IMG/VR virus record: IMGVR_UViG_3300007609_001205
Coordinates: 1 to 40,833 of that record
Length of the DNA stretch: 40,833 bases
Strand: one strand, 5' to 3'
DNA from: a virus
Taxonomy: Duplodnaviria; Heunggongvirae; Uroviricota; Caudoviricetes
Shown: positions 18,663-31,824 of the stretch, piece by piece
Position numbering within the stretch: the first letter of the stretch is position 1
How the letters are laid out: every line of letters starts with the position of its first letter
Made by a program: the position numbers and the translations under genes
The notes under the pieces: generated by a model
Database searches by the model: none
What the model saw: the letters and a program-made list of their open reading frames with translations, nothing else
Told to the model about the DNA's origin: nothing

Positions 18663-20987
18663 ATGAGTAATTTCAGTAATCCAACATTCATAAATCCATT
18701 GAGTCAGACAGACCGGACCATCAAAATATATGATGAAGACCTTAACATAAGGCATACGATCAATGCGCACACAGTAAAAAATGTTTTTGTTGTGAATAAC
18801 CTTATAAAGATAAGTTTGAACTCGGATAGAGTAATAACATTAGACTTCAATTCTTCGAATGAGGCAACATTGGCACTACCCAAACTCAAACAACAAATAG
18901 ACCAATTGAGCAACAAAACCCCACTCAGAATTGATAAACCAATAGAAGAATATATCCAAGGAATGGGATTATCATATTCAAATGGAAACCTTTTTGTGAA
19001 TGCAAATATGATACCTGTATCTGGATCATATTCCATCGGTTCTTCTGCATCTCTTTGGAAAGATATTTTTGTATCAACAAGTTCGGTACATATTGGTGGT
19101 GCAACAATATCAAGTGATGGAAACGCCATATTAATGGATTCACTAGGATTGGTAAGTGGTACAAACTCATTGATACTCACAAATGATAATGGATTTCTGA
19201 ACATAGGTGGTTTAACTACATCAATGGGGACTACTGGACCAACGGGGGCTACTGGACCACAAGGTATTCAAGGTGCAACTGGGCCACAAGGACCAACAGG
19301 AGGTGGACTTGGATTATTGAACGGCTCAACTGTATCTATACCGGTAGGTATTATGAATATAAACTCAATACGTACTGAAATAAGCAATGAAAATTTTAAC
19401 TTTTTCACAACATCTGCAATATTCGATTACCCATATACATTTACAGGTGATATAGCAACATACTCAACTACTATTCAACCGGGCAATCGTCCATACACAC
19501 AAACCGTAATGACGGGATTGTTCAGTGTTGGAGAATTATTTCCGGGACTCGACATGATAGCAACCTATAAGTATTATATGTTTGGGGAAAGGGGAATAAC
19601 ATCATCATACTTAGAATCAAGTGAGTTCCAATCATCTGGAATAATCTCGAAATATACCTACATATATGCAGGACTAACCCCATCAAATGGATTATCTGCA
19701 TCAACACAACACCGCCACCGTTTTTATTATAACGATTACGTGGAAACATATGATAGTGGTGATGTATCACTGACATATGATGGTACTATGTCATACACAT
19801 ACAGTAATGATATAAATGAAGGACTTTCTGTAGAAAATTCATTTCAAATAGGGAAAGAATATAATTATGGTTTTGGGTTTATTGGAACACACTCATTGTT
19901 CATGAATGGAACATATTCAAATGTAACAAAACCAACCCACTCAGATGCATTCAGTGTATATGTTGGACAAGATTCGGCTCAATATATTTCTTCGGGAGAT
20001 AGTGCAACAGCATCAGCATTCAATGTTGCAGTCGGACATTCTGCAATGAAGGATAGTGTTCTATCATCTTTTAATGTTGCAGTGGGGTTCGAAGCAGGTA
20101 AGACTGCAGAAAATGCATTCAATACATATATTGGAACAAGTGCAGGTAGATATGACAAAGGGACATATAATACATACATTGGAACAAATGCAGGACAGAG
20201 TTCAACTGCAAGTTCTAACACAGTAAATAATACATTTATAGGCATAAATTCGGGACAATCATCATTAAGTGGCTCAGGTAATAATACATTTGTTGGTGCA
20301 AACTCCGGAAGTGATAACACCACAGGTGGATTTAACACATTCTTTGGGGCTTATTCCGGTGTTGATAATACAGAGGGTGATAACAATACCTTTATCGGTG
20401 CTTACTCAGGATTCAACCATACAACAGGAACTAACAATTTATTCATTGGCCACCAATCTGGATATGATACCATATCAGCATCTGCTTCTGTGATAATCGG
20501 TGGTTATTCTACAGAATTACTAGGATCACTATCTATTGAAAACATATACTTAGCAGATGGGAATGGGAATTTGAGATACCATTATGATGGAACACAATCT
20601 ATTATAAAAGATAACCTCAAAGTTGAAGGTGCTTTAGATATCGGTGCAGTATCTGAGAGATATGGACAATACACGACCTCATCAAATACACACTTTTATG
20701 ATTGCACATCCGGTAACATATTCTACCACGAATCTTTAACATCACCATTTAAAGTAGACCTCATAAACCTACAAGAGAATGATGTTAATACCATAACAAT
20801 AATATTAGAACAAAGTGGTACAATTTACCAACCAGAATCATATTTAATAAATGGAGTTACACATTCTGTTAAATGGTCAAATGGAACATACTCGTTTAAC
20901 TCTGACCAAACAGATATAATTGGACTTAGCATTTTAAAAACAGGTACATCATCAACTATACTTGGACAAACAAATACATTCAATTGA
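18663..20987 (+). CDS. Tail-fibre-like protein with collagen segment and N-T-x-I-G beta-roll repeats
   Basis: GTTGPTGATGPQGIQGATGPQGPTG; about 9 repeats of N[TV][YFA][IVF]G..[AS]G; TAAATATATA immediately upstream. Confidence 0.7.
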   Translation: MSNFSNPTFINPLSQTDRTIKIYDEDLNIRHTINAHTVKNVFVVNNLIKISLNSDRVITLDFNSSNEATLALPKLKQQIDQLSNKTPLRIDKPIEEYIQGMGLSYSNGNLFVNANMIPVSGSYSIGSSASLWKDIFVSTSSVHIGGATISSDGNAILMDSLGLVSGTNSLILTNDNGFLNIGGLTTSMGTTGPTGATGPQGIQGATGPQGPTGGGLGLLNGSTVSIPVGIMNINSIRTEISNENFNFFTTSAIFDYPYTFTGDIATYSTTIQPGNRPYTQTVMTGLFSVGELFPGLDMIATYKYYMFGERGITSSYLESSEFQSSGIISKYTYIYAGLTPSNGLSASTQHRHRFYYNDYVETYDSGDVSLTYDGTMSYTYSNDINEGLSVENSFQIGKEYNYGFGFIGTHSLFMNGTYSNVTKPTHSDAFSVYVGQDSAQYISSGDSATASAFNVAVGHSAMKDSVLSSFNVAVGFEAGKTAENAFNTYIGTSAGRYDKGTYNTYIGTNAGQSSTASSNTVNNTFIGINSGQSSLSGSGNNTFVGANSGSDNTTGGFNTFFGAYSGVDNTEGDNNTFIGAYSGFNHTTGTNNLFIGHQSGYDTISASASVIIGGYSTELLGSLSIENIYLADGNGNLRYHYDGTQSIIKDNLKVEGALDIGAVSERYGQYTTSSNTHFYDCTSGNIFYHESLTSPFKVDLINLQENDVNTITIILEQSGTIYQPESYLINGVTHSVKWSNGTYSFNSDQTDIIGLSILKTGTSSTILGQTNTFN

Positions 20988-20988
20988 T

Positions 20989-22503
20989 ATGTTAGGAAGG
21001 CTTTCATCACATATTGGACCACTGAATAAAATTGGTCATATTAAAACTAGTTTGGGTGGTGATAGTTTTATATCAACTTGGGACACTACTCAGGCTGGTA
21101 GTGCATCTGACACAGTAGTTCTACCACTTGAATCGGGTGGTGTATATTCGGGCACAATTGACTGGGGTGATGGTAATACATCATCATTAAGTTATGCCAA
21201 CAGAACGCACGTATATGCCTCATCAGGTACTTACACAATTACTATAAGTGGTACTATCGAAGGATTCCAGTTTAACAATGGAGGTGATAAAGAGAAGATT
21301 ATTGATATATCTAATTGGGGTGCATTAAACCTTACTAATGGCTCAGTATTTTACGGATGTGTTAACTTAGATATAAGTGCGACAGATGCTCCTACAATAA
21401 CTACTACAACATTTAACTCAATGTTCAGAGATTGTCAATCCATAGTAAATGCAGATTTAAATAGTTGGGATGTTTCTGCTGTAACTGATATGACTTACTG
21501 TTTTGGGCGAATTGGTGGTGGTAATGATACCTGTCAGATAAACCCAAATATCAGTGATTGGGATGTTTCTTCTGTTACTAATATGAGTTATATGTTCAGT
21601 AAGAATATTACATTTAATAGACCACTTAACAGTTGGGACGTATCATCTGTAACAAATATGTTTGAAATGTTCAGTGGTGCAGATTTATTCAATCAGCCAT
21701 TGGATAATTGGAACACTTCATCTGTAACAAATATGGGAAGGATGTTCGGTGGATATTCACTTAGAACAAATACTTTCAATCAGGACATAAACGCCTGGGA
21801 CGTATCCAATGTAACAAATTTCGTTGAAATGTTTTCTTATGGTGATTTTGCTGGCGATATAAGGGATTGGAATTTAACATCTGCATCATCAACGAATTTA
21901 ATGTTTGCTTATAATAATGGTACACCAAACCTTTCAAATTGGAACACTTCTACCATCACAGATATGGAGGAGATGTTCAGAAACTCTAATTTCAATGGAG
22001 ATATAAGTGGTTGGGATACGAGTTCTGTTACTAATATGGTACGTATGTTCCAAGTTGCAACACAATTCAATCAAGATATCAGTAGTTGGGATGTGAGTTC
22101 TGTTACTAATATGATAAGTATGTTTTCGGGTGCAGGTTCTTTCAATCAACCAATCGGTTCTTGGACTACTACTTCACTTGTAAGAATTGATAGGATGTTC
22201 AGAAGACTTTCTAATGTAGTGTGTGTCTTTAATCAAGACATTAGTAATTGGGATGTAACTGGTATAACAAATGCATCAGAGTTTATGAGGTTAAGTACTT
22301 CTTTATCAACTACAAATTACGACCCAGTATTGGTGGCTTGGGAAGCACAATTACAAACAGCATATCCAGGTGGTATAGGCTCACCAAATGTTAATATACA
22401 TTTTAGTAATAGCCAATACACATTAGGAAGTGCAGCCGAAACTGCAAGAACAAGTTTAATTAGCACATTTGGTTGGTCAATAACTGATGGAGGTGGAATA
22501 TAA
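20989..22503 (+). CDS. BspA-like/DUF285 repeat protein with PKD-like N-terminal domain, probable virion adhesin
   Basis: IDWGDG motif and about 11 repeats of [IL]..W[DN][VT]S.VT.M..MF; ATG 20989 follows the upstream stop at 20987. Confidence 0.85.
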   Translation: MLGRLSSHIGPLNKIGHIKTSLGGDSFISTWDTTQAGSASDTVVLPLESGGVYSGTIDWGDGNTSSLSYANRTHVYASSGTYTITISGTIEGFQFNNGGDKEKIIDISNWGALNLTNGSVFYGCVNLDISATDAPTITTTTFNSMFRDCQSIVNADLNSWDVSAVTDMTYCFGRIGGGNDTCQINPNISDWDVSSVTNMSYMFSKNITFNRPLNSWDVSSVTNMFEMFSGADLFNQPLDNWNTSSVTNMGRMFGGYSLRTNTFNQDINAWDVSNVTNFVEMFSYGDFAGDIRDWNLTSASSTNLMFAYNNGTPNLSNWNTSTITDMEEMFRNSNFNGDISGWDTSSVTNMVRMFQVATQFNQDISSWDVSSVTNMISMFSGAGSFNQPIGSWTTTSLVRIDRMFRRLSNVVCVFNQDISNWDVTGITNASEFMRLSTSLSTTNYDPVLVAWEAQLQTAYPGGIGSPNVNIHFSNSQYTLGSAAETARTSLISTFGWSITDGGGI

Positions 22504-23213: not shown

Positions 23214-23438
23214 CTATATTTCATCACTCAACAAACCAAGGAAAAAACTCAACCTATTTCTCCGTTTAATCATTTTATCATAACGCCTTTGGGCATCCAC
23301 ATCATCACAAACCCCACCCATATCACGGTCTATTTGCTCAAAACGCCAAAAATCTCGGATTGAACTCTCCAAGAGTGATAATTCTTTCTTGTTTTTTCTT
23401 CTTTCTTTTCCCGAAATAAAATAAGGTGATTCATTCAT
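23214..23438 (-). CDS. Small hypothetical protein
   Basis: 74 aa; overlaps the NADAR stop by 8 nt. Confidence 0.55.
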   Translation of the reverse strand: MNESPYFISGKERRKNKKELSLLESSIRDFWRFEQIDRDMGGVCDDVDAQRRYDKMIKRRNRLSFFLGLLSDEI

Positions 23439-23964
23439 TTCCTTTACTTAAAAAATTTCTATTTACTCGATCTTCCAAAGATGGCTTTTCTTCATCCTTA
23501 ATACTTTCCCTTATCGACATTTGAAGGATTCCAAGTTTGTTCTCACCTCCCCCCTTCAAATTACAATTATCACATCTACAATCACCCCAATAATTGTCGT
23601 GATGGTAATTTCCCTCAATAATATGATCATCACCAGTTGCCAATAACATATCTTTGAGATCCTGATGTTTGGTGAATTTATAAGTAACACCAAATGACAT
23701 AACATCGTCTTTTATAGAATCCCAATCAGAACGTATCTTACGTGTTCTACCTAGCTTTTTAGCATCTGATGGGTCTTTTATACTCGAAATCATTTCTTTG
23801 AAATCGGGTTCAGTGAAATGATACCCACCATAGAATTGCATACCACGGAATTTTTGTGCTACATAATAATGCTCAACAGATGGATATGATATACCCTTGT
23901 GTTTTATCTCACATGGATAAAAGTTGGAAAGGAAAAAATATCTACCCCTAAACCTATCTATCAT
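23431..23964 (-). CDS. NADAR (YbiA-like) family ADP-ribosylhydrolase
   Basis: FLSNFY, SVEHYYVAQKF, AKKLGR, W...K..VM...KF, LLATGD..IIE, DNYWG and G.NKLG motifs. Confidence 0.9.
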   Translation of the reverse strand: MIDRFRGRYFFLSNFYPCEIKHKGISYPSVEHYYVAQKFRGMQFYGGYHFTEPDFKEMISSIKDPSDAKKLGRTRKIRSDWDSIKDDVMSFGVTYKFTKHQDLKDMLLATGDDHIIEGNYHHDNYWGDCRCDNCNLKGGGENKLGILQMSIRESIKDEEKPSLEDRVNRNFLSKGNE

Positions 23965-24338: not shown

Positions 24339-24367
24339 AAAAAACCCTACTTCGGTAGGGTTTTTTT
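24339..24367. terminator. Rho-independent terminator after ssrA, potentially bidirectional
   Basis: AAAAAACCCTAC-TTCG-GTAGGGTTTTTTT: perfect stem with A and T tracts on either side. Confidence 0.85.
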
Positions 24368-24738
24368 GTGGAGGCGGAGGGATTCGAACCCTCATCTTCA
24401 TAACGGAACGATATCAATCATTCACAAGTTTAGTCAAATTTTTCTAAATCTGACAAAATATTCGGTTCTTTCGTATCTAAAAAACTCCGACAAAAAACCC
24501 ACACCATTTTAGACTGCTGTGTTTCAGTGGAACTTTTAATGAATCAGTGGTTAAACCAACTCAAGCTCAGTTGCCTCGAACTGTCCGTTTCGTAGAACCG
24601 CTACTACATCTTCACGAGTACCTACTTCATTTGTAACGTTGCCGTTTACAAGTTGATCGACTTATCAAATCGGTGTCAATCAGCCCGATACCTGCTCAAT
24701 AACGAACGACATTATAAATCAACTGCCGAAACGCCCCC
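24368..24738 (-). ncRNA. ssrA: tmRNA (transfer-messenger RNA), about 370 nt
   Basis: 5' GGGGGCG pairs with 3' CGCCTCC including the G3-U70 Ala determinant and discriminator A; T-arm GAGGG-TTCGAAT-CCCTC; internal resume context TAAAC|GGC AAC and tag ORF 24643-24551; CCA not fully encoded. Confidence 0.92.
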
Positions 24739-24751
24739 AGATCATCATTAC

Positions 24752-24770
24752 TATATATTATACAAATATA
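24752..24770 (-). promoter_or_regulatory. Tandem host-type (TATATTTG, 24770-24763) and phage-type (ATAATATATA, 24761-24752) promoter motifs upstream of ssrA
   Basis: Minus strand reads TATATTTGTATAATATATAG, ending 12 nt before the mature 5' end. Confidence 0.55.
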
Positions 24771-25759: not shown

Positions 25760-26349
25760 AAAAATTAAAACATTTCATAGAATTCATAAAGGAATCCAAT
25801 GACGAATGGGTAGAAAGAACTGTACCAATACCAGTAAAGGATTTTTTCAGCAAATGGTTCAGTGATAAGAAGAAAATTGACGAAGATGATAATTACATCA
25901 CTTATGTTTACCACAACAAAGAATATGATGATAAAGAAGGAGAATATTGGTGGGAGAAAAAGAAAATAATAAAATTAGACAAAAGTAGAGATGATGTAAC
26001 ACACTATTATGAATATGATGAAATAAACAGACCTCTATATAAAGTGAGAGAAGAAGGTATGACCAGAGAACAAGAACTGATGATACGTTGTTGGTGTGGT
26101 ACTGAAAAGAATCCAAAACCGAATGGGAAATACATTGGATTTGAAAAAGGATTGGCAATGTATAAAAGTTTCCTATCGGATAGGATAAATGGTAAATTAT
26201 ATCACGTTTTACCGGATGGGGATATATTAGAAATGTTGGATGATGAAAAATTAGAGGATGAAGATTACGTAAATGATAAAATAGATTTTCTCCTTGATAC
26301 AAGAAATGAAGATAAAATACACATCATACAAAGACAATTAGGAAACTGA
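25756..26349 (+). CDS. Hypothetical protein with MKKLKHFIEFIKES leader
   Basis: 197 aa; ATGA-coupled to the ATPase. Confidence 0.7.
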   Translation: MKKLKHFIEFIKESNDEWVERTVPIPVKDFFSKWFSDKKKIDEDDNYITYVYHNKEYDDKEGEYWWEKKKIIKLDKSRDDVTHYYEYDEINRPLYKVREEGMTREQELMIRCWCGTEKNPKPNGKYIGFEKGLAMYKSFLSDRINGKLYHVLPDGDILEMLDDEKLEDEDYVNDKIDFLLDTRNEDKIHIIQRQLGN

Positions 26350-26907
26350 TGCCAACTTCTCTTCAAGTCTGGCTTTACGAGCCTTTGCTTCATCTACCTT
26401 GAACTTTGGTGCATTTTCAACGAAACCCTTATTGTTCAATTGTTTATTCACCTTTTCAAGACTACTTTTCAGTTTATCAACATCCACAACTATCTCACTA
26501 ACATCATCGACTTTTCTAAATTGTGGTTTCTGTCCCTCAATGTCAAATAAAATGCCTTTATCAGACGACTTCCCAAGTTTCACAAAAACAGTCTCATGTG
26601 ATGCCAGTTGAACCATCTTCCATTCTTTTAAAAATTCAGTTAGATCATTTTTTATATTACTCTCACCAGACATGATATCTCTCAGTTCAAATACTTCGGG
26701 TATAAAGTTCTTCCATTTATCAAATAAGCCAGTGTTTTGAAAGACACTGAACCAAGAACCAGAAGAAATAACTTGTGATATATCACCAATATCCATTCTG
26801 ATATCAGTCACAACCACACCATTCACTTCTATACTTTCAGAATCTATACGGGATTTTATATCATTTACCTTCAATCCCCATTCTTTCAATATTGTCTGTA
26901 GTTTCAT
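26338..26907 (-). CDS. Protein with S4-like N-terminus and valyl-tRNA synthetase C-terminal coiled-coil arm
   Basis: C-terminus KSSLEKVNKQLNNKGFVENAPKFKVDEAKARKARLEEKL matches the ValRS tRNA-binding arm (L.N..FV..AP); N-terminus MKLQTILKEWGL...I...SIEVNGVVV is S4-like; start moved to ATG 26907. Confidence 0.65.
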   Translation of the reverse strand: MKLQTILKEWGLKVNDIKSRIDSESIEVNGVVVTDIRMDIGDISQVISSGSWFSVFQNTGLFDKWKNFIPEVFELRDIMSGESNIKNDLTEFLKEWKMVQLASHETVFVKLGKSSDKGILFDIEGQKPQFRKVDDVSEIVVDVDKLKSSLEKVNKQLNNKGFVENAPKFKVDEAKARKARLEEKLASVS

Positions 26908-28051
26908 TTTGTGTAAGTTTACGAGACAAAGGTAATGATTCCCAATCAATATTCACACATACATCTGATAATTTTTTCAAATATGTCATATCTAAACATT
27001 CATCAGGGGTGTGTTCGTTCATATAACCAACCGATATATTTGTACATTCGGGTATAACACCCATAAAAGATGCAGAATCACTACTCACACCTGTTGGGTC
27101 TTTCTTCATATCTAATCCATTTGAGTTCATTTGAGAACATAACTCATCAGAAAATTCATCAGAACAACACACTACATCCTTTTGTTTAGTTATAATGGAG
27201 TGGTTACCCTTTCTATCAAAGGCCACACACCGTTCAACACCATGTAGATGTGTCTGTGTATCAAATGAATCAGAAACTGCCTTAGAACCAATGCAACCAG
27301 CCTCCTCGCCAATGAAAAAGTAATATATCCCCGGAACTTCGTTGTACATCATATAAACCATTAGTGCAACGCCTGCTTTATCATCTGCACCAAGTATAGT
27401 TTCACCATCAGTCATTATCAATTCAGAGTCACCTTCCGACTTTGAAAATAAATTTATTTCGGTTTGGTCATCACTACGAGTATCCAGATGTGACACAAAC
27501 ATTGTTTTGGAATTCCCAATTACTTTATAATAGTTCCCAAATTCATCCACTTCAACATCAGGCAACATTTGTGCAACCTGCTCCTCATATCCGTGTGGGT
27601 ATGTCTTCTGAACCATAGCCAAAAAAGTGTATCTTATATCAGATGGGTCATAACCACTATCAGTGAACTCAATACGTTGTGTCCCCACATTGCCCTCATT
27701 AACCTTCAAATCCACGTGTATATCATATGAATTTTGCTCATCCCCAACAAATTTAACTTTGGAATGAACAACATTAACAGGCAATTCTTCTTTATATAAT
27801 TTAATTAACTCCCAAGCCACTTTTTTAAGAGTTTCTTTCGTAGGTAGTTTTTCACGAATACGAATAAGTGCAACATGTTGCCTCTTATCAACTAATTTAA
27901 CAACAACATCATCGTCATCACCCTTTACTCGAATAAGATAGTTACTTGAATCTACATCATTGCCCACAAATACTTTGAAACCATCAACCTCAATATCCTT
28001 GATATCAAAGGATGAACTCTTAGATTCATTGAATGTCATTATGTATCTCAT
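26861..28051 (-). CDS. M28/M20-family zinc peptidase with N-terminal NFACT-R (DUF814)-like domain
   Basis: SHLDT, LGADDKAG, GEE.GC.GS, AFDRKG, SD...F and NISVGY..EH metal-ligand motifs; N-terminal DGFKVFVG...N.L.....DD segment. Confidence 0.8.
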   Translation of the reverse strand: MRYIMTFNESKSSSFDIKDIEVDGFKVFVGNDVDSSNYLIRVKGDDDDVVVKLVDKRQHVALIRIREKLPTKETLKKVAWELIKLYKEELPVNVVHSKVKFVGDEQNSYDIHVDLKVNEGNVGTQRIEFTDSGYDPSDIRYTFLAMVQKTYPHGYEEQVAQMLPDVEVDEFGNYYKVIGNSKTMFVSHLDTRSDDQTEINLFSKSEGDSELIMTDGETILGADDKAGVALMVYMMYNEVPGIYYFFIGEEAGCIGSKAVSDSFDTQTHLHGVERCVAFDRKGNHSIITKQKDVVCCSDEFSDELCSQMNSNGLDMKKDPTGVSSDSASFMGVIPECTNISVGYMNEHTPDECLDMTYLKKLSDVCVNIDWESLPLSRKLTQNETTDNIERMGIEGK

Positions 28052-28068
28052 AGAGTATATATTCCATA

Positions 28069-29976
28069 TTAAATATGATTACGCCTCCAAACATACTTAT
28101 CTTGACCACAACCATAAACACGATGATACCCACGATCACACATTATCTCAACCTCTGTTTTAAGTGGGTCAAATCCATCTTTTATCAATTTACTTTTATT
28201 ATAATTGAACCTATGTTTACGAATACCATCAACAACCCACCAATAATTCGGTGATGTTCTGTATAACATTTCAAATCCCATTTTTTCATAAACCTTACCA
28301 GAAAACATTGATATATCAGCAAATGTGGATATCTCATCAACATCATTATTATCTATGTAATATTTAAATAATTTTGAAGCAGACCCATGTACTGTAGTGT
28401 TTAATTTATTACAAAATCTAACTAATTCATTTCCTTTCTTTGGAGAATGGAATAACATACAAGATACCAATTCACCATTATAAAAAAGACCAACAGCATC
28501 TCTATACGTTGTCTTGCCCTGTATATGATTCATATCTAAAAATTCATTAACCAACTTCTTATCATTTATCACTCTTATATCACACTTCCTACCGGGTATT
28601 TTATACTTGGTCAATCCTAAAAAATTCCTAATTATAGATTCAACAATATCTCGTTTATACAACCAATCATCTTCCCATATGTGTAGTAAATTAATACCTT
28701 GTTCATTACACAAATCAGTCTTTTCCAAATGATAATTAGAATGTTTATATAAGTCTGAGTGCCAATATAAACCATTATACTCAATTGCTATATTTTTCGA
28801 AGGTATATAAATATCCAATTCAAAGGGTGGTATTATTGATTTACTGTTTGGTATATACTCAACTCCAATACTATCCAACCATTCCATTATATTTTTCTCT
28901 TGACCCGACCCACTATTCAATGGGTTACATATTGAACATGGTTCAATGTTTACTGACAATCTTCTCTGTAATGTTGTTGGGTGTATCGAAAATGTATGTC
29001 CACATGAATCATTCTTCAAATCAACAAACCCCTTAATGTCTGAGGCGGATATGAATTCAAATCCCATATCATCATAGAATTTAATTCGTTTCATTAGCCT
29101 TTTTTCAACAAATTCATCACTATTTATGAGATTTTTATATTCTTCTGTTTGAGTATAATGAGTAGCACCATATTTATCATTCATTATACCATCTATGGAA
29201 TTTCTGAATTCATAAGATTGAAAATACCAATCAGTTCCATACTTTGACTTATTCGTATTTTTTACCTTATCAACATATATTGGGGACTGTGAATAATGAT
29301 CAACACCATACTTTGAATTATTGGTGGCAATTGCCTTGGCTTTATATTCATCTGTTCGTGTGAACCAATCAACTCCATATTTTTCTCTGTTTGTTCTAAT
29401 AGTCTTATCAATATATTCCAGACTTTGTACATAATGACCAACACCATATTTATACATCATAGTATCTTTAGAAGTTTTTTTAAACTCCTCTGTTTTGAAA
29501 TAATGATCAACACCATATCTCTTCAAACACGTATCTCGATACTTTTTTTTAACTTCCTCATTCTGGAAAGATGATGTTGTACCATATCTTTCTAAGTTCG
29601 TTGAAGCCTGTTTTTTTTTAACCGATAACAATTTAGCAACATTATCAACACCATACTTAGACAATGTTGTTTTTTTTCTTCTTACCTTAGTTTCCTTACT
29701 ATTTTGTGCACACTTAGCAGAACAATTCTTTTTATACCCATTTAACCAATTACGATTGAATGTGGTATCATTTCCACACACACATTTATAATATTTTGGG
29801 TAATCATTAACCCAATGCCATATCATTTGCTTGAAAGGTAAATCAAGAATTGAACAGAAATTTTCAATTTCTATTAATACCTCATTATAATTTTTTTCAA
29901 AATAACTTCTACGCATTCTGCTAGAACTACCATCCAATATATCGTTTATAACATTTAATCTCTTTTTAATAACCAT
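28069..29976 (-). mobile_element. Free-standing homing-endonuclease-like gene (Hef-like PD-(D/E)XK nuclease with 23-aa repeats)
   Basis: 8 repeats of T..[KR]YG[VTA] at 23-aa spacing; CxC/CxxxC and CxH...CxxC zinc motifs; ELDIYIP...IAIEYNGLYWH nuclease motif; lies directly downstream of the MCP terminator. Confidence 0.7.
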
Positions 29977-30102: not shown

Positions 30103-31824
30103 TTAGTTTAATAACTGTGCATCATCCTTCACACGGATTGTCATGTACTGCTTCTCTGGGAAGAAACCAACGTCAGCAATCGCGTATCTTGATCTAAGTA
30201 GCATTCTTGGTGCGAATGTTGCCTCAGAAATAACAGAGATTGACTGTGCCATCAAATATGGTACGAAGATCAATCCTGGCTGATCTGGGTTATTCTTTCT
30301 ACCAAGTACGATTCGGTTATCGTTGTACTTCATGTATGGATCAACATATACCTGAATATCAGCTACTTGTCCAATTGGGTACAACTGACCCTGACCGTTC
30401 AACTTAGATTTAACTGGATTAACAGTGTATCCAACTACATCCATAAGAGCAGCAGCAAGACCCCCGTTAGTTACAGCGAACTGTGCTGGTCCAACACGAC
30501 CCTCAGTTGCGATGTAGTTAGAAGCATGCATCATCCTAGTGATGAGTTTTCTTTGAACTGCGTGAGTGGTTTCACCACCTGGTCCAGTTGTAGCTGTAAC
30601 ATATGCAGTATCAAGGTCGAAAATTGTATGACCTGTAATAGTTGCTGTTGCGGCTGCTGGAGCAGTTCCACGGTTAGCATCTCCAAGTTCGAAGATTCTT
30701 GAAATAATCTGCTTAGAGATTACCTGAGAAAGTTCATTAACAAGGATTGACTCCATTTTCTGAACGATATCCATACCTGTGTTAGCTTTGATATCCTCGA
30801 TTTCAGTTCTTCTAAGTGCAGAAGATACTTCAATAGTACCAACAGCAACAGATTTAGACGAAATCTTCGGTCCAATAACACCTGCATATCTTGAATCATC
30901 TTGATCACGATCCATTGGGTAATCACCAGAACTTGTATTAGAGTTCCAATTTGCAGAGAACCCTGGAAGCTGATCTTCAAGAGCAGATACCAAATCAACT
31001 GATACAGAAGAGAAGGTAACTCCTGAGAATGTACCTGCTGCCAATTGAGCGTTCATATTTGAAGCATTATCAAATGTATTTTTATCCGCATCCCACTGAT
31101 ATGGGTAAGCACCACTACCTGCACTATTAGGAGCAGTTGTAGAGTTAAACTGACGGAATGCTCTAAAAATAGGAAGACCATCTACACGAGAGAATCCTAA
31201 GAATTCCAACCAACCTGCTTTAGTAGCCGTAGGACCAGCAGTACCGATAGTATCGCTCAAGAAATCCAAGAACAATTGACCATCTTCCAATCCACCTTGT
31301 GTTTCTCTAAGACCCTCACTAGTTATATTGTGAGAAAGAGTTGCAGTAAGTGCAGTAAGTGCAGTAGCATCAGTTGAACTCAACTTGAATACTTGCGGTC
31401 TTGAATCACCACCAACATCTCTAAGATCATCATATTGGAAATCAATATAAAGAAGATCGATTTTTGGACCCGGAGTAGGTTTTACAGCAACAAGGTCAAG
31501 ACCAATTGTCTGGGCTGCGATTTTCATAGCTACTGGAAGTAGGTTCTGACCAAGATCACCTGATCCGATGTTACCTGAAACAGCACCTTGTGATCCAAAT
31601 CCTGAACCACCACCAAGGAGACCTGGTAGAGTACCTGGTTGTGCAGATTGAACACCGCCCATACCGGCAGTTGTAGCATTAACGTAAGCATTTTCATTGA
31701 TTGAATGGAATTCAGCATATTCTGACAACCAATCAAGTCTTTCTTCGTTAGTTACACCCATGTTTTCCAATACTGGACCCCATTTCTTAATAGCTTTTTG
31801 TTTGTCTATTCTAATGTGTGACAT
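30103..31824 (-). CDS. gp23: Major capsid protein (T4 gp23-like)
   Basis: KKWGPVLE N-terminus, AQTIGLDLVAVKP, GRVGPAQFAV, VYVDPY, G..F.PY.M and RSRY motifs; own terminator. Confidence 0.95.
   Translation of the reverse strand: MSHIRIDKQKAIKKWGPVLENMGVTNEERLDWLSEYAEFHSINENAYVNATTAGMGGVQSAQPGTLPGLLGGGSGFGSQGAVSGNIGSGDLGQNLLPVAMKIAAQTIGLDLVAVKPTPGPKIDLLYIDFQYDDLRDVGGDSRPQVFKLSSTDATALTALTATLSHNITSEGLRETQGGLEDGQLFLDFLSDTIGTAGPTATKAGWLEFLGFSRVDGLPIFRAFRQFNSTTAPNSAGSGAYPYQWDADKNTFDNASNMNAQLAAGTFSGVTFSSVSVDLVSALEDQLPGFSANWNSNTSSGDYPMDRDQDDSRYAGVIGPKISSKSVAVGTIEVSSALRRTEIEDIKANTGMDIVQKMESILVNELSQVISKQIISRIFELGDANRGTAPAAATATITGHTIFDLDTAYVTATTGPGGETTHAVQRKLITRMMHASNYIATEGRVGPAQFAVTNGGLAAALMDVVGYTVNPVKSKLNGQGQLYPIGQVADIQVYVDPYMKYNDNRIVLGRKNNPDQPGLIFVPYLMAQSISVISEATFAPRMLLRSRYAIADVGFFPEKQYMTIRVKDDAQLLN

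Follow-up and report, generated by a model that had tools for sequence, protein, structure and literature searches.

The tmRNA gene

We describe a gene for transfer-messenger RNA (tmRNA, SsrA) in a stretch of viral DNA of 40,833 nucleotides, called the window here, which comprises positions 1-40,833 of the 151,869-base IMG/VR virus record IMGVR_UViG_3300007609_001205. The gene belongs to a family found on viral contigs, and its message part encodes a tag of 30 residues and contains two covarying RNA hairpins inside the tag frame. An earlier note on this DNA had proposed a phage tmRNA with a long tag that lacks the canonical ...LAA end; what it overlooked is how far these in-frame hairpins dictate the sequence of the tag.

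On the minus strand, Infernal matches 24366-24738 to the Rfam tmRNA family RF00023 with 59.9 bits, above the cut-off of 47 (E 4e-21, model positions 1-374), and RF00023 was the sole Rfam family scoring over its cut-off in the window. Across the entire 152-kb record, the window included, ARAGORN found no tmRNA but reported eight transfer RNAs (tRNAs). Since a T4 gp23-like capsid gene is located at 30103-31824, the locus is phage DNA, and the assignment of the earlier note to a phage tmRNA is upheld. The parts of the gene and its flanks are as follows.

24366-24738, minus strand: one-piece tmRNA gene (ssrA), from Rfam RF00023 and a family alignment of 19 sequences
24732-24738, minus strand: 5' strand of the acceptor stem, GGGGGCG, pairing with 24370-24376 (CGCCUCC) over 7 base pairs
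24366-24376, minus strand: 3' strand of the acceptor stem with the discriminator A (24369) and a CAA tail, from the sequence
24377-24393, minus strand: T arm GAGGGUUCGAAUCCCUC with a canonical T loop, from the Rfam alignment at high posterior probability
24654-24689, minus strand: pseudoknot 1, formed by a hairpin (24669-24689) and a second stem (24675-24682 with 24654-24661)
24339-24367, minus strand: terminator-like hairpin CCCUAC-CGAA-GUAGGG, then a U run, read off the sequence
24751-24770, minus strand: promoter-like boxes TATATTTG (24763-24770) and AATATATAG (24751-24759), read off the sequence and of putative function

Relatives of the tmRNA were collected in several ways. BLAST against the phage collection returned only LR756502 (642 kb) and LR745206 (635 kb). 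A nucleotide pattern for the start of the tag yielded 24 members on viral contigs, a degenerate peptide-level pattern (E-D-x-V-x-x-L-Q-N-N) at least 120 viral contigs, and a profile derived from the 19-sequence alignment confirmed the tmRNA at no fewer than 105 loci, with at least 103 parsed tags in at least 55 distinct nucleotide versions. These three family counts are those among the matches listed and thus lower bounds. A loose pattern for pseudoknot 1 gave mostly chance matches and, after filtering with the family profile, added only L125 and L071 among the matches listed, and a pattern with fixed spacing found no relatives. Contigs carrying the gene reach 476-483 kb.

The predicted structure is well supported by the 19-sequence alignment, in which 97.9% of the cells are paired, compared with at most 42% when the partners are slid. 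Changes on both sides were found in 24 pairs versus 12.5 in shuffles, a value reached by none of 500 shuffles; in helices 2-4 they occur in 11 of 21 pairs, and the long-range helix 2 joins the 5' and 3' parts of the RNA where a tRNA would have its anticodon arm. The hairpin stem of pseudoknot 1 is conserved in 19 of 19 aligned sequences, and its second stem (8 base pairs) is seen by complementarity in the window sequence alone. The G3:U70 pair, the alanine identity element, is present in all 92 full-length relatives, across nine compensated variants of the acceptor stem. The window gene does not encode CCA, its 3' end being CAA. A 3' CCA (ACCA) is encoded in only nine of the 92 full-length members (ACAA in 58, ACUA in 20), and therefore these tmRNAs must rely on a CCA-adding enzyme. 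The window locus is an intact phage-encoded one-piece tmRNA, and the predicted RNA has every feature needed for alanine charging and for entry into stalled ribosomes.

Upstream of the gene, box TATATTTG matches TAnnTTTG, the Bacteroidota -7 consensus, and stands in tandem with AATATATAG; TAnnTTTG-like boxes are likewise located upstream of the tmRNA in LR756502 and LR745206. Relatives from other clades retain TATATTTG, and the closest relatives retain AATATATAG. The hairpin at 24339-24367 was not listed by a scan for consensus terminators.

The tag reading frame

The Rfam alignment places the resume codon at G24643-G24642-C24641 with high posterior probability, directly preceded by UAAAC.

24644-24649, minus strand: upstream determinant GUAAAC (U at -5, A at -4), at the end of a 10-nucleotide spacer (24644-24653) that follows pseudoknot 1
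24641-24643, minus strand: resume codon GGC (Gly), from the Rfam alignment
24554-24643, minus strand: tag reading frame of 30 codons, from the alignment, the gap pattern and the rates at the codon positions
24551-24553, minus strand: stop codon TAA, an invariant triplet between variable columns of the 19-sequence alignment

Translation of the minus strand from 24643 to 24551 gives GNVTNEVGTREDVVAVLRNGQFEATELELV and then TAA, the tag ending in ELELV. Rfam alignment and translation together reproduce what the earlier note had read from the letters, that is, the coordinates 24551-24643 on the minus strand, the UAAAC context and the 30-residue peptide GNVTNEVGTREDVVAVLRNGQFEATELELV. The note had also suggested confirming the resume codon with ARAGORN and Infernal: Infernal with RF00023 returned GGC, whereas ARAGORN detected no tmRNA at all. 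Its placement of U at -5 and A at -4 agrees with the family, in which A occupies -4 in 103 of 103 relatives and U occupies -5 in 100 of 103. The resume codon itself varies synonymously between GGC (37) and GGA (17) in the 55 distinct versions, with GAC in the remaining one.

Several lines of evidence indicate that this frame is translated. It is open for 27, 29 or 30 codons in 19 of 19 distinct relatives of the alignment and in 103 of 105 family members, and the same aligned stop closes it (TAA in 99, TAG in four), so that the comparison among related phages which the earlier note had called for came out in favour of its frame. All gap runs within the frame are three nucleotides long, whereas elsewhere in the RNA runs of one nucleotide (138) and two nucleotides (64) dominate. 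Parsimony steps per column amount to 1.29, 1.12 and 2.12 at codon positions 1, 2 and 3 (permutation p = 0.012), and the excess at third positions is alike in codons 1-15 and codons 16-30. Residue 9 is Thr or Ser spelled by six codons, including both serine families, and lies upstream of an alternative start that ARAGORN reports in two relatives. Furthermore, the first in-frame hairpin begins 18 nucleotides 3' of the resume codon; helix 5 of E. coli has the same geometry, with its hairpin 18 nucleotides downstream of the resume codon (E. coli numbering). Translation thus very probably resumes at GGC 24643, which would give 30 residues.

A later in-frame restart at codon 16 (GUU, 24598-24596), with a 15-residue tag VLRNGQFEATELELV and the upstream 45 nucleotides as untranslated structured RNA, appears improbable to us. 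This is exactly the start that ARAGORN chooses in L018 and L033 (VLQNN...ELEVA), the two nearest relatives that it recognises, U at -5 and A at -4 are provided there too by the invariant GUA of Val14, GCN as the commonest resume codon occupies the site in most relatives, and 15 residues would be nearer to the usual tag length. However, this codon is located 55 nucleotides beyond pseudoknot 1 and within the 3' strand of the first hairpin, and Rfam aligns the resume position to GGC with high posterior probability. A start at codon 16 would also leave unexplained why the third-position excess in codons 1-15 equals that of codons 16-30 and why the gaps in codons 1-15, which stem from two independent events, are solely of three nucleotides; in addition, the frame from GGC is retained in 103 of 103 relatives, and the six codons for Thr or Ser at residue 9 lie in the part that would not be translated. 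Resumption one base later at GCA, which the earlier note had named as an alternative and which would give the short tag ATLQMK ending at a conserved UAG, is hardly credible. In its favour, no resume codon is commoner than GCA, this short frame is open in all relatives with a stop at codon 6-7 in each, and a UAG-UAG pair lies in the same frame within the loop of the first hairpin. Against it, U and A would shift to -6 and -5, the last tag residue would be Lys (among bacteria reported only for Carsonella, PMC4131195), the UAG is conserved because it is part of the invariant stem in which GUAG pairs with CUAC, and no reason would remain for the sequence past this UAG to evolve as coding sequence, with 23 downstream codons staying open with only three-nucleotide gaps, an invariant TAA and a terminal Ala or Val.

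Alternative genetic codes were considered and rejected, since TAA, TGA and TAG all terminate long frames that are open under table 11 (the standard code).

Hairpins inside the frame and constraint on the tag

According to RNAalifold, two hairpins form inside the tag frame.

24592-24625, minus strand: hairpin A, codons 7-18, with compensatory changes in five of nine pairs of the 19-sequence alignment
24565-24581, minus strand: hairpin B, codons 21-27, with covariation between codons 22 and 26

The pairing was followed through the 55 distinct versions. Position 1 of codon 10 and position 3 of codon 15 form A-U in 31 and C-G in 24 of them, and position 2 of codon 10 and position 2 of codon 15 form G-C in 43 and A-U in 12, so that both positions are paired in 55 of 55. 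Position 3 of codon 9 and position 1 of codon 16 are paired in 54 of 55 versions, with four pair types, and the same fraction holds for position 1 of codon 22 and position 3 of codon 26 (C-G 30, A-U 21, U-A 2, U-G 1). These changes are visible in the peptide as linked swaps: Arg, Ser, Asn or Lys at residue 10 goes with Ala or Phe at 15, Cys or Thr at residue 16 with the third base of codon 9, and Leu, Ile or Phe at 22 with Glu or Asp at 26. The need for RNA pairing ties the variation at residues 10, 15, 16, 22 and 26 to that of their pairing partners. Hairpins A and B covary perfectly, and RNA pairing sets the residues at these five positions. In the predicted structure hairpin A occupies the canonical site of helix 5, but the ribosome would read through it, and hairpin B comes after.

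The consensus of the tag is G-N/K-V/T-x-N-E-V-G-T-R/S-E-D-L-V-A-A-L-Q-N-N-M/L-L/I-x-V-x-E/D-L-x-x-A/V. Its 16-residue core, NEVGTxEDLVAALQNN, is nearly fixed even at synonymous sites (GAA in 55/55, GUA in 55/55 and 54/55, GAU in 52/55, CAA in 53/55 and AAC in 54/55), and therefore selection there acts on the RNA, whatever the effect of the peptide. The pattern used to collect relatives permitted every synonym in the core, so this synonymous fixation is not an artefact of the pattern.

The last ten codons present a different picture, evolving as ordinary coding sequence in which an acidic and hydrophobic pattern and an Ala or Val end are kept. Leu27 is spelled by six codons, and position -4 from the end is Leu in 90 of 103 tags, with a conserved acidic residue before it. 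Of the 103 tags, 84 have Val, Thr or Leu as the residue before the last. All but one of the 103 close with Ala or Val, spelled GTC, GCT, GTT, GCC, GCG, GCA or GTG; the exception, in one relative, is Ser. None of the 47 distinct family tags listed has an Ala-Ala end, and the window tag with its ELELV is no exception; the ClpX-type Ala-Ala signal is usual for tmRNA tags but does not define the class. The codon usage argues that the C-terminal end is under selection at the peptide level for its acidic, hydrophobic character.

Distribution of the family

Most members of this family are not found by the usual tools. Of 15 further relatives tested against Rfam, only the closest ones, L018 and L033, scored above the cut-off of 47 (52 and 49 bits) and the other 13 remained below it; ARAGORN likewise missed 13 of 15 and shortened the tag in the other two. 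The homologous tmRNA gene in LR756502 and LR745206 escapes both. In most members the T loop is noncanonical, of the GGGCAGUAC or GGGCGGUAC type (for example in L005, L006, L008, L009, L016, L017, L019, L022 and L037), and it is because of the odd GGGCAGUAC-type T loops that the Rfam cut-off and ARAGORN miss these relatives.

Outside viruses, the start-of-tag pattern gave eight matches in 185,579 prokaryote species (one genome each), all located in or opposite protein genes and none in a tmRNA. The degenerate core pattern had one match in 401 Bacteroidota genomes, opposite a protein gene and without a tmRNA. Searching the genome of the window with the tag by tblastn revealed no second copy or look-alike, and the same search against the phage collection gave no match, probably since the query is so short. 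Within what was searched, the long-tag tmRNA family is apparently restricted to viral contigs.

In one member, L011:1539-1820, the tmRNA fits the family profile only to position 284 of 378, with unrelated A/T-rich sequence beyond. An insertion, truncation of the gene or a break in the assembly may account for this.

The phage and the surroundings of the gene

CheckV estimates the record to be 25% complete, which corresponds to a genome of roughly 600 kb. Among the products of the window are a T4 gp23-like capsid protein, further virion proteins, a peptidase and an HNH endonuclease. The source is a megaphage with a T4-like capsid, related to Mar_Mega_1, LR756502 and LR745206. The marine megaphage Mar_Mega_1 is the sister of LR756502 and LR745206 and is listed with 'one tmRNA' (PMC9723777). 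Al-Shayeb et al. assigned their largest phage genomes, the five above 634 kb, to the Mahaphage clade with predicted Bacteroidetes hosts (PMC7162821). The genes around the tmRNA are the following.

30103-31824, minus strand: T4 gp23-like major capsid protein (Pfam PF07068, 98.9 bits; phrog_138)
26861-28051, minus strand: M20/M28-like peptidase upstream of the tmRNA (phrog_4191, 229 bits; matched weakly by M20/M28 and peptidase T entries of Pfam and PDB)
23431-23964, minus strand: NADAR-domain gene downstream of the tmRNA (Pfam PF08719, 102 bits)

The NADAR gene adjoins the tmRNA in 20 related loci, and the order capsid, peptidase, tmRNA and NADAR on one strand is conserved across the family. 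The tmRNA gene therefore lies in a late structural module. The NADAR domain stands for the removal of ADP-ribose, and one may speculate that the rescue RNA and a possible de-ADP-ribosylation enzyme form a pair in counter-defence.

Other genes in this region vary or have matches of their own. An HNH homing-endonuclease gene (28069-29976, minus strand) between the capsid and peptidase genes was matched only in L010, L013 and L033 among the relative loci compared and is probably a mobile insertion. The 203-residue product of a gene between peptidase and tmRNA (26338-26949, minus strand) has at its C-terminus a match to the tRNA-binding coiled-coil arm of valyl-tRNA synthetase (PF10458, 32 bits); L018 and L033 have this protein as well. 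The structural module further contains, at 20962-22503 on the plus strand, a 513-residue protein of DUF285 repeats (271 bits), a family named for Mycoplasma surface proteins.

Candidate partners for rescue and proteolysis

SmpB is encoded in both complete relatives, LR756502 and LR745206 (167-177 bits), and neither genome shows a further tmRNA scoring over the Rfam cut-off. Each of them further contains two or three true ClpP genes (184-260 bits), and a ClpP gene is located at 110378-110908 in the genome of the window (211 bits). Matches to Lon (Lon_C) and to S41 protease were found neither in this genome nor in LR756502 or LR745206. In addition, both complete relatives encode a candidate unfoldase for ClpP.

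L065:409-2514 (LR745206), with a homologue near 441-442 kb in LR756502: ClpC-like two-ring AAA+ unfoldase of about 700 residues, from the alignment to ClpC

This ATPase scores 798 bits to B. subtilis ClpC and contains GVGF, the ClpP-docking loop. The alignment begins at residue 145 of ClpC, so the N-domain is absent; an acidic tail of about 40 residues replaces the N-terminal Clp repeat domain.

Possible function of the tmRNA and fate of tagged proteins

These data suggest how the tmRNA might act. Together with phage or host SmpB it would free ribosomes that stall on broken messenger RNAs during infection, and this rescue would probably come late because the tmRNA gene lies in the capsid module. 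The tag would be read differently from the ...ALAA of the host, either by the phage ClpC-like unfoldase with ClpP or by a host protease that recognises non-polar C-termini. The earlier note had left open whether the tagged products are spared or redirected to another protease. What speaks for redirection is the presence of both ClpP and a ClpC-like unfoldase in the complete relatives, and of ClpP in this genome; what speaks against sparing is that the last residue (Ala or Val in 102/103) and Leu at -4 (90/103) have the usual non-polar look of a degradation signal. Our best guess, to which we give about even odds, is that the tag would be a degradation signal with changed specificity. Taken as a whole, the sequences make it probable that the family represents a conserved, hairpin-shaped phage tmRNA with a long tag that may act as such a signal.

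Several points weigh against this interpretation. Much of the conservation sits in the RNA, and the pairwise ratio of nonsynonymous to synonymous differences (pN/pS) is 0.62 in the proposed frame versus 0.72 and 0.65 in the other frames, so that the frames are not separated. This failure arises because RNA structure also constrains the sequence, and parsimony steps by codon position together with gap lengths were used for the choice of frame instead. ARAGORN places a later start in the two relatives L018 and L033, and the patterns with which the family was collected had fixed some of the positions that were later described. The window tag is the most divergent of the family, with LRNGQF in place of LQNNML. 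Furthermore, no SmpB was found in the 152-kb fragment, which is 25% complete by CheckV and for which host SmpB could serve, and the same 152 kb contain no Clp ATPase, Lon or S41 protease.

The strongest contender, which we nevertheless consider doubtful, keeps the 30-residue frame as proposed but holds that the tag is no degradation signal: the long message would exist since the hairpins are required, for example to let the tmRNA fold, to bind a protein partner or to pace the ribosome, and the phage would gain only the release of ribosomes while the products are spared or sent elsewhere. The invariance of the core at synonymous sites (GAA, GUA, GAU, UUA, CAA, AAC) would fit this, as would the weak pN/pS and the radical swaps at residues 15 (Ala/Phe) and 10 (Arg/Ser/Asn/Lys), which just track base pairing; the tags also lack the ...LAA end, and one relative ends in Ser. 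On the other hand, 102 of 103 tags end in Ala or Val with free third positions, Leu at -4 is kept in 90 tags through six codons behind a conserved acidic residue, no indel breaks the frame, and relatives possess ClpP and the ClpC-like unfoldase.

A more elaborate version of this degradation signal would be a private route of rescue and disposal, which we regard as unlikely. The tag added by phage tmRNA and SmpB would be a poor substrate signal for host ClpXP, the phage ClpC-like unfoldase, which lacks the adaptor-binding N-domain, would feed the tagged proteins to phage ClpP, and the phage would so control the recycling of what broken messages yield. The two hairpins of the message could then provide an additional level of control, for example if they pace the ribosome or bind a phage factor.

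Comparison with known tmRNAs

In its overall architecture the window RNA resembles standard one-piece bacterial SsrA. Common to both are the acceptor stem with G3:U70, the T arm and the long helix 2. In both, a short spacer separates pseudoknot 1 from the resume codon, U and A occupy -5 and -4, the internal frame has no start codon, a hairpin lies 18 nucleotides past the resume codon, and the tag end is non-polar. In contrast to standard SsrA, the stop codon lies outside the helix-5-like hairpin, and the frame traverses that hairpin and a second one. The window gene also differs in lacking an encoded CCA, and most relatives differ in their odd T loops and Rfam scores below the cut-off.

The tags of Bacteroidota, the likely host phylum, are of a different kind. 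In 31 Bacteroidota tmRNAs detected by ARAGORN they are 8-10 residues long (for example GENTYALAA) and end in ALAA (14), AMAA (8), RLAA (8) or ALVA (1). The statement of the earlier note that the window tag, with 30 residues, has about three times the usual length holds against this set; so does its observation of a missing ...LAA end, since 30 of the 31 end in Ala-Ala, whereas the window tag ends in ELELV and those of relatives in EVA or ATV.

A tag of similar length is known from Mycoplasma, with 27 residues read by Lon (PMC8403727). There, too, a natural tag is about three times as long as usual, and this length accompanies a switch of protease away from ClpXP (PMC8403727). The bearer of the present tag is a phage and not a cell without ClpXP, and no Lon gene was found in this genome and the two complete relatives. 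In Mycoplasma the tags still have aromatic or Ala residues at their ends.

Being phage-borne is a property shared with the tmRNAs of the Bxz1 group, of phage G and, in two pieces, of Melnitz and pelagimyophages. Phage tmRNAs are known in Bxz1-type mycobacteriophages and Bacillus phage G (PMC4131195), and 402 phages with a tmRNA have been reported by ARAGORN (PMC9004378). The commonest tag length is 10 residues (PMC11915505). The tag of phage G, AKLNITNNELQVA, ends in QVA (PMC12484599), which is like the ...VA ends of the present family rather than ...AA, but it has only 13 residues compared with 30. The tmRNA of Mar_Mega_1 was merely counted in its paper (PMC9723777), and the papers on known phage tmRNAs discuss no long conserved tag or in-frame hairpins. 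These surveys of phage tmRNAs relied on ARAGORN, which misses the window tmRNA and 13 of 15 further relatives. In the literature searched we found no published description of this long-tag family or of hairpins within a tag frame. What is new here are two covarying hairpins inside the tag frame and a core that is fixed at the RNA level.

In practical terms, the published megaphage genomes LR756502 and LR745206, which encode SmpB, have a tmRNA that ARAGORN and the Rfam cut-off do not report. Textbook tmRNA tags are short degradation signals, whereas here a large and apparently phage-only family has a tag three times longer with another ending. It presents a natural case of one short sequence under selection at both the RNA and the peptide level, in which the amino acids at five positions follow their base-pairing partners. 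It also raises the question whether giant phages redirect the fate of unfinished proteins.
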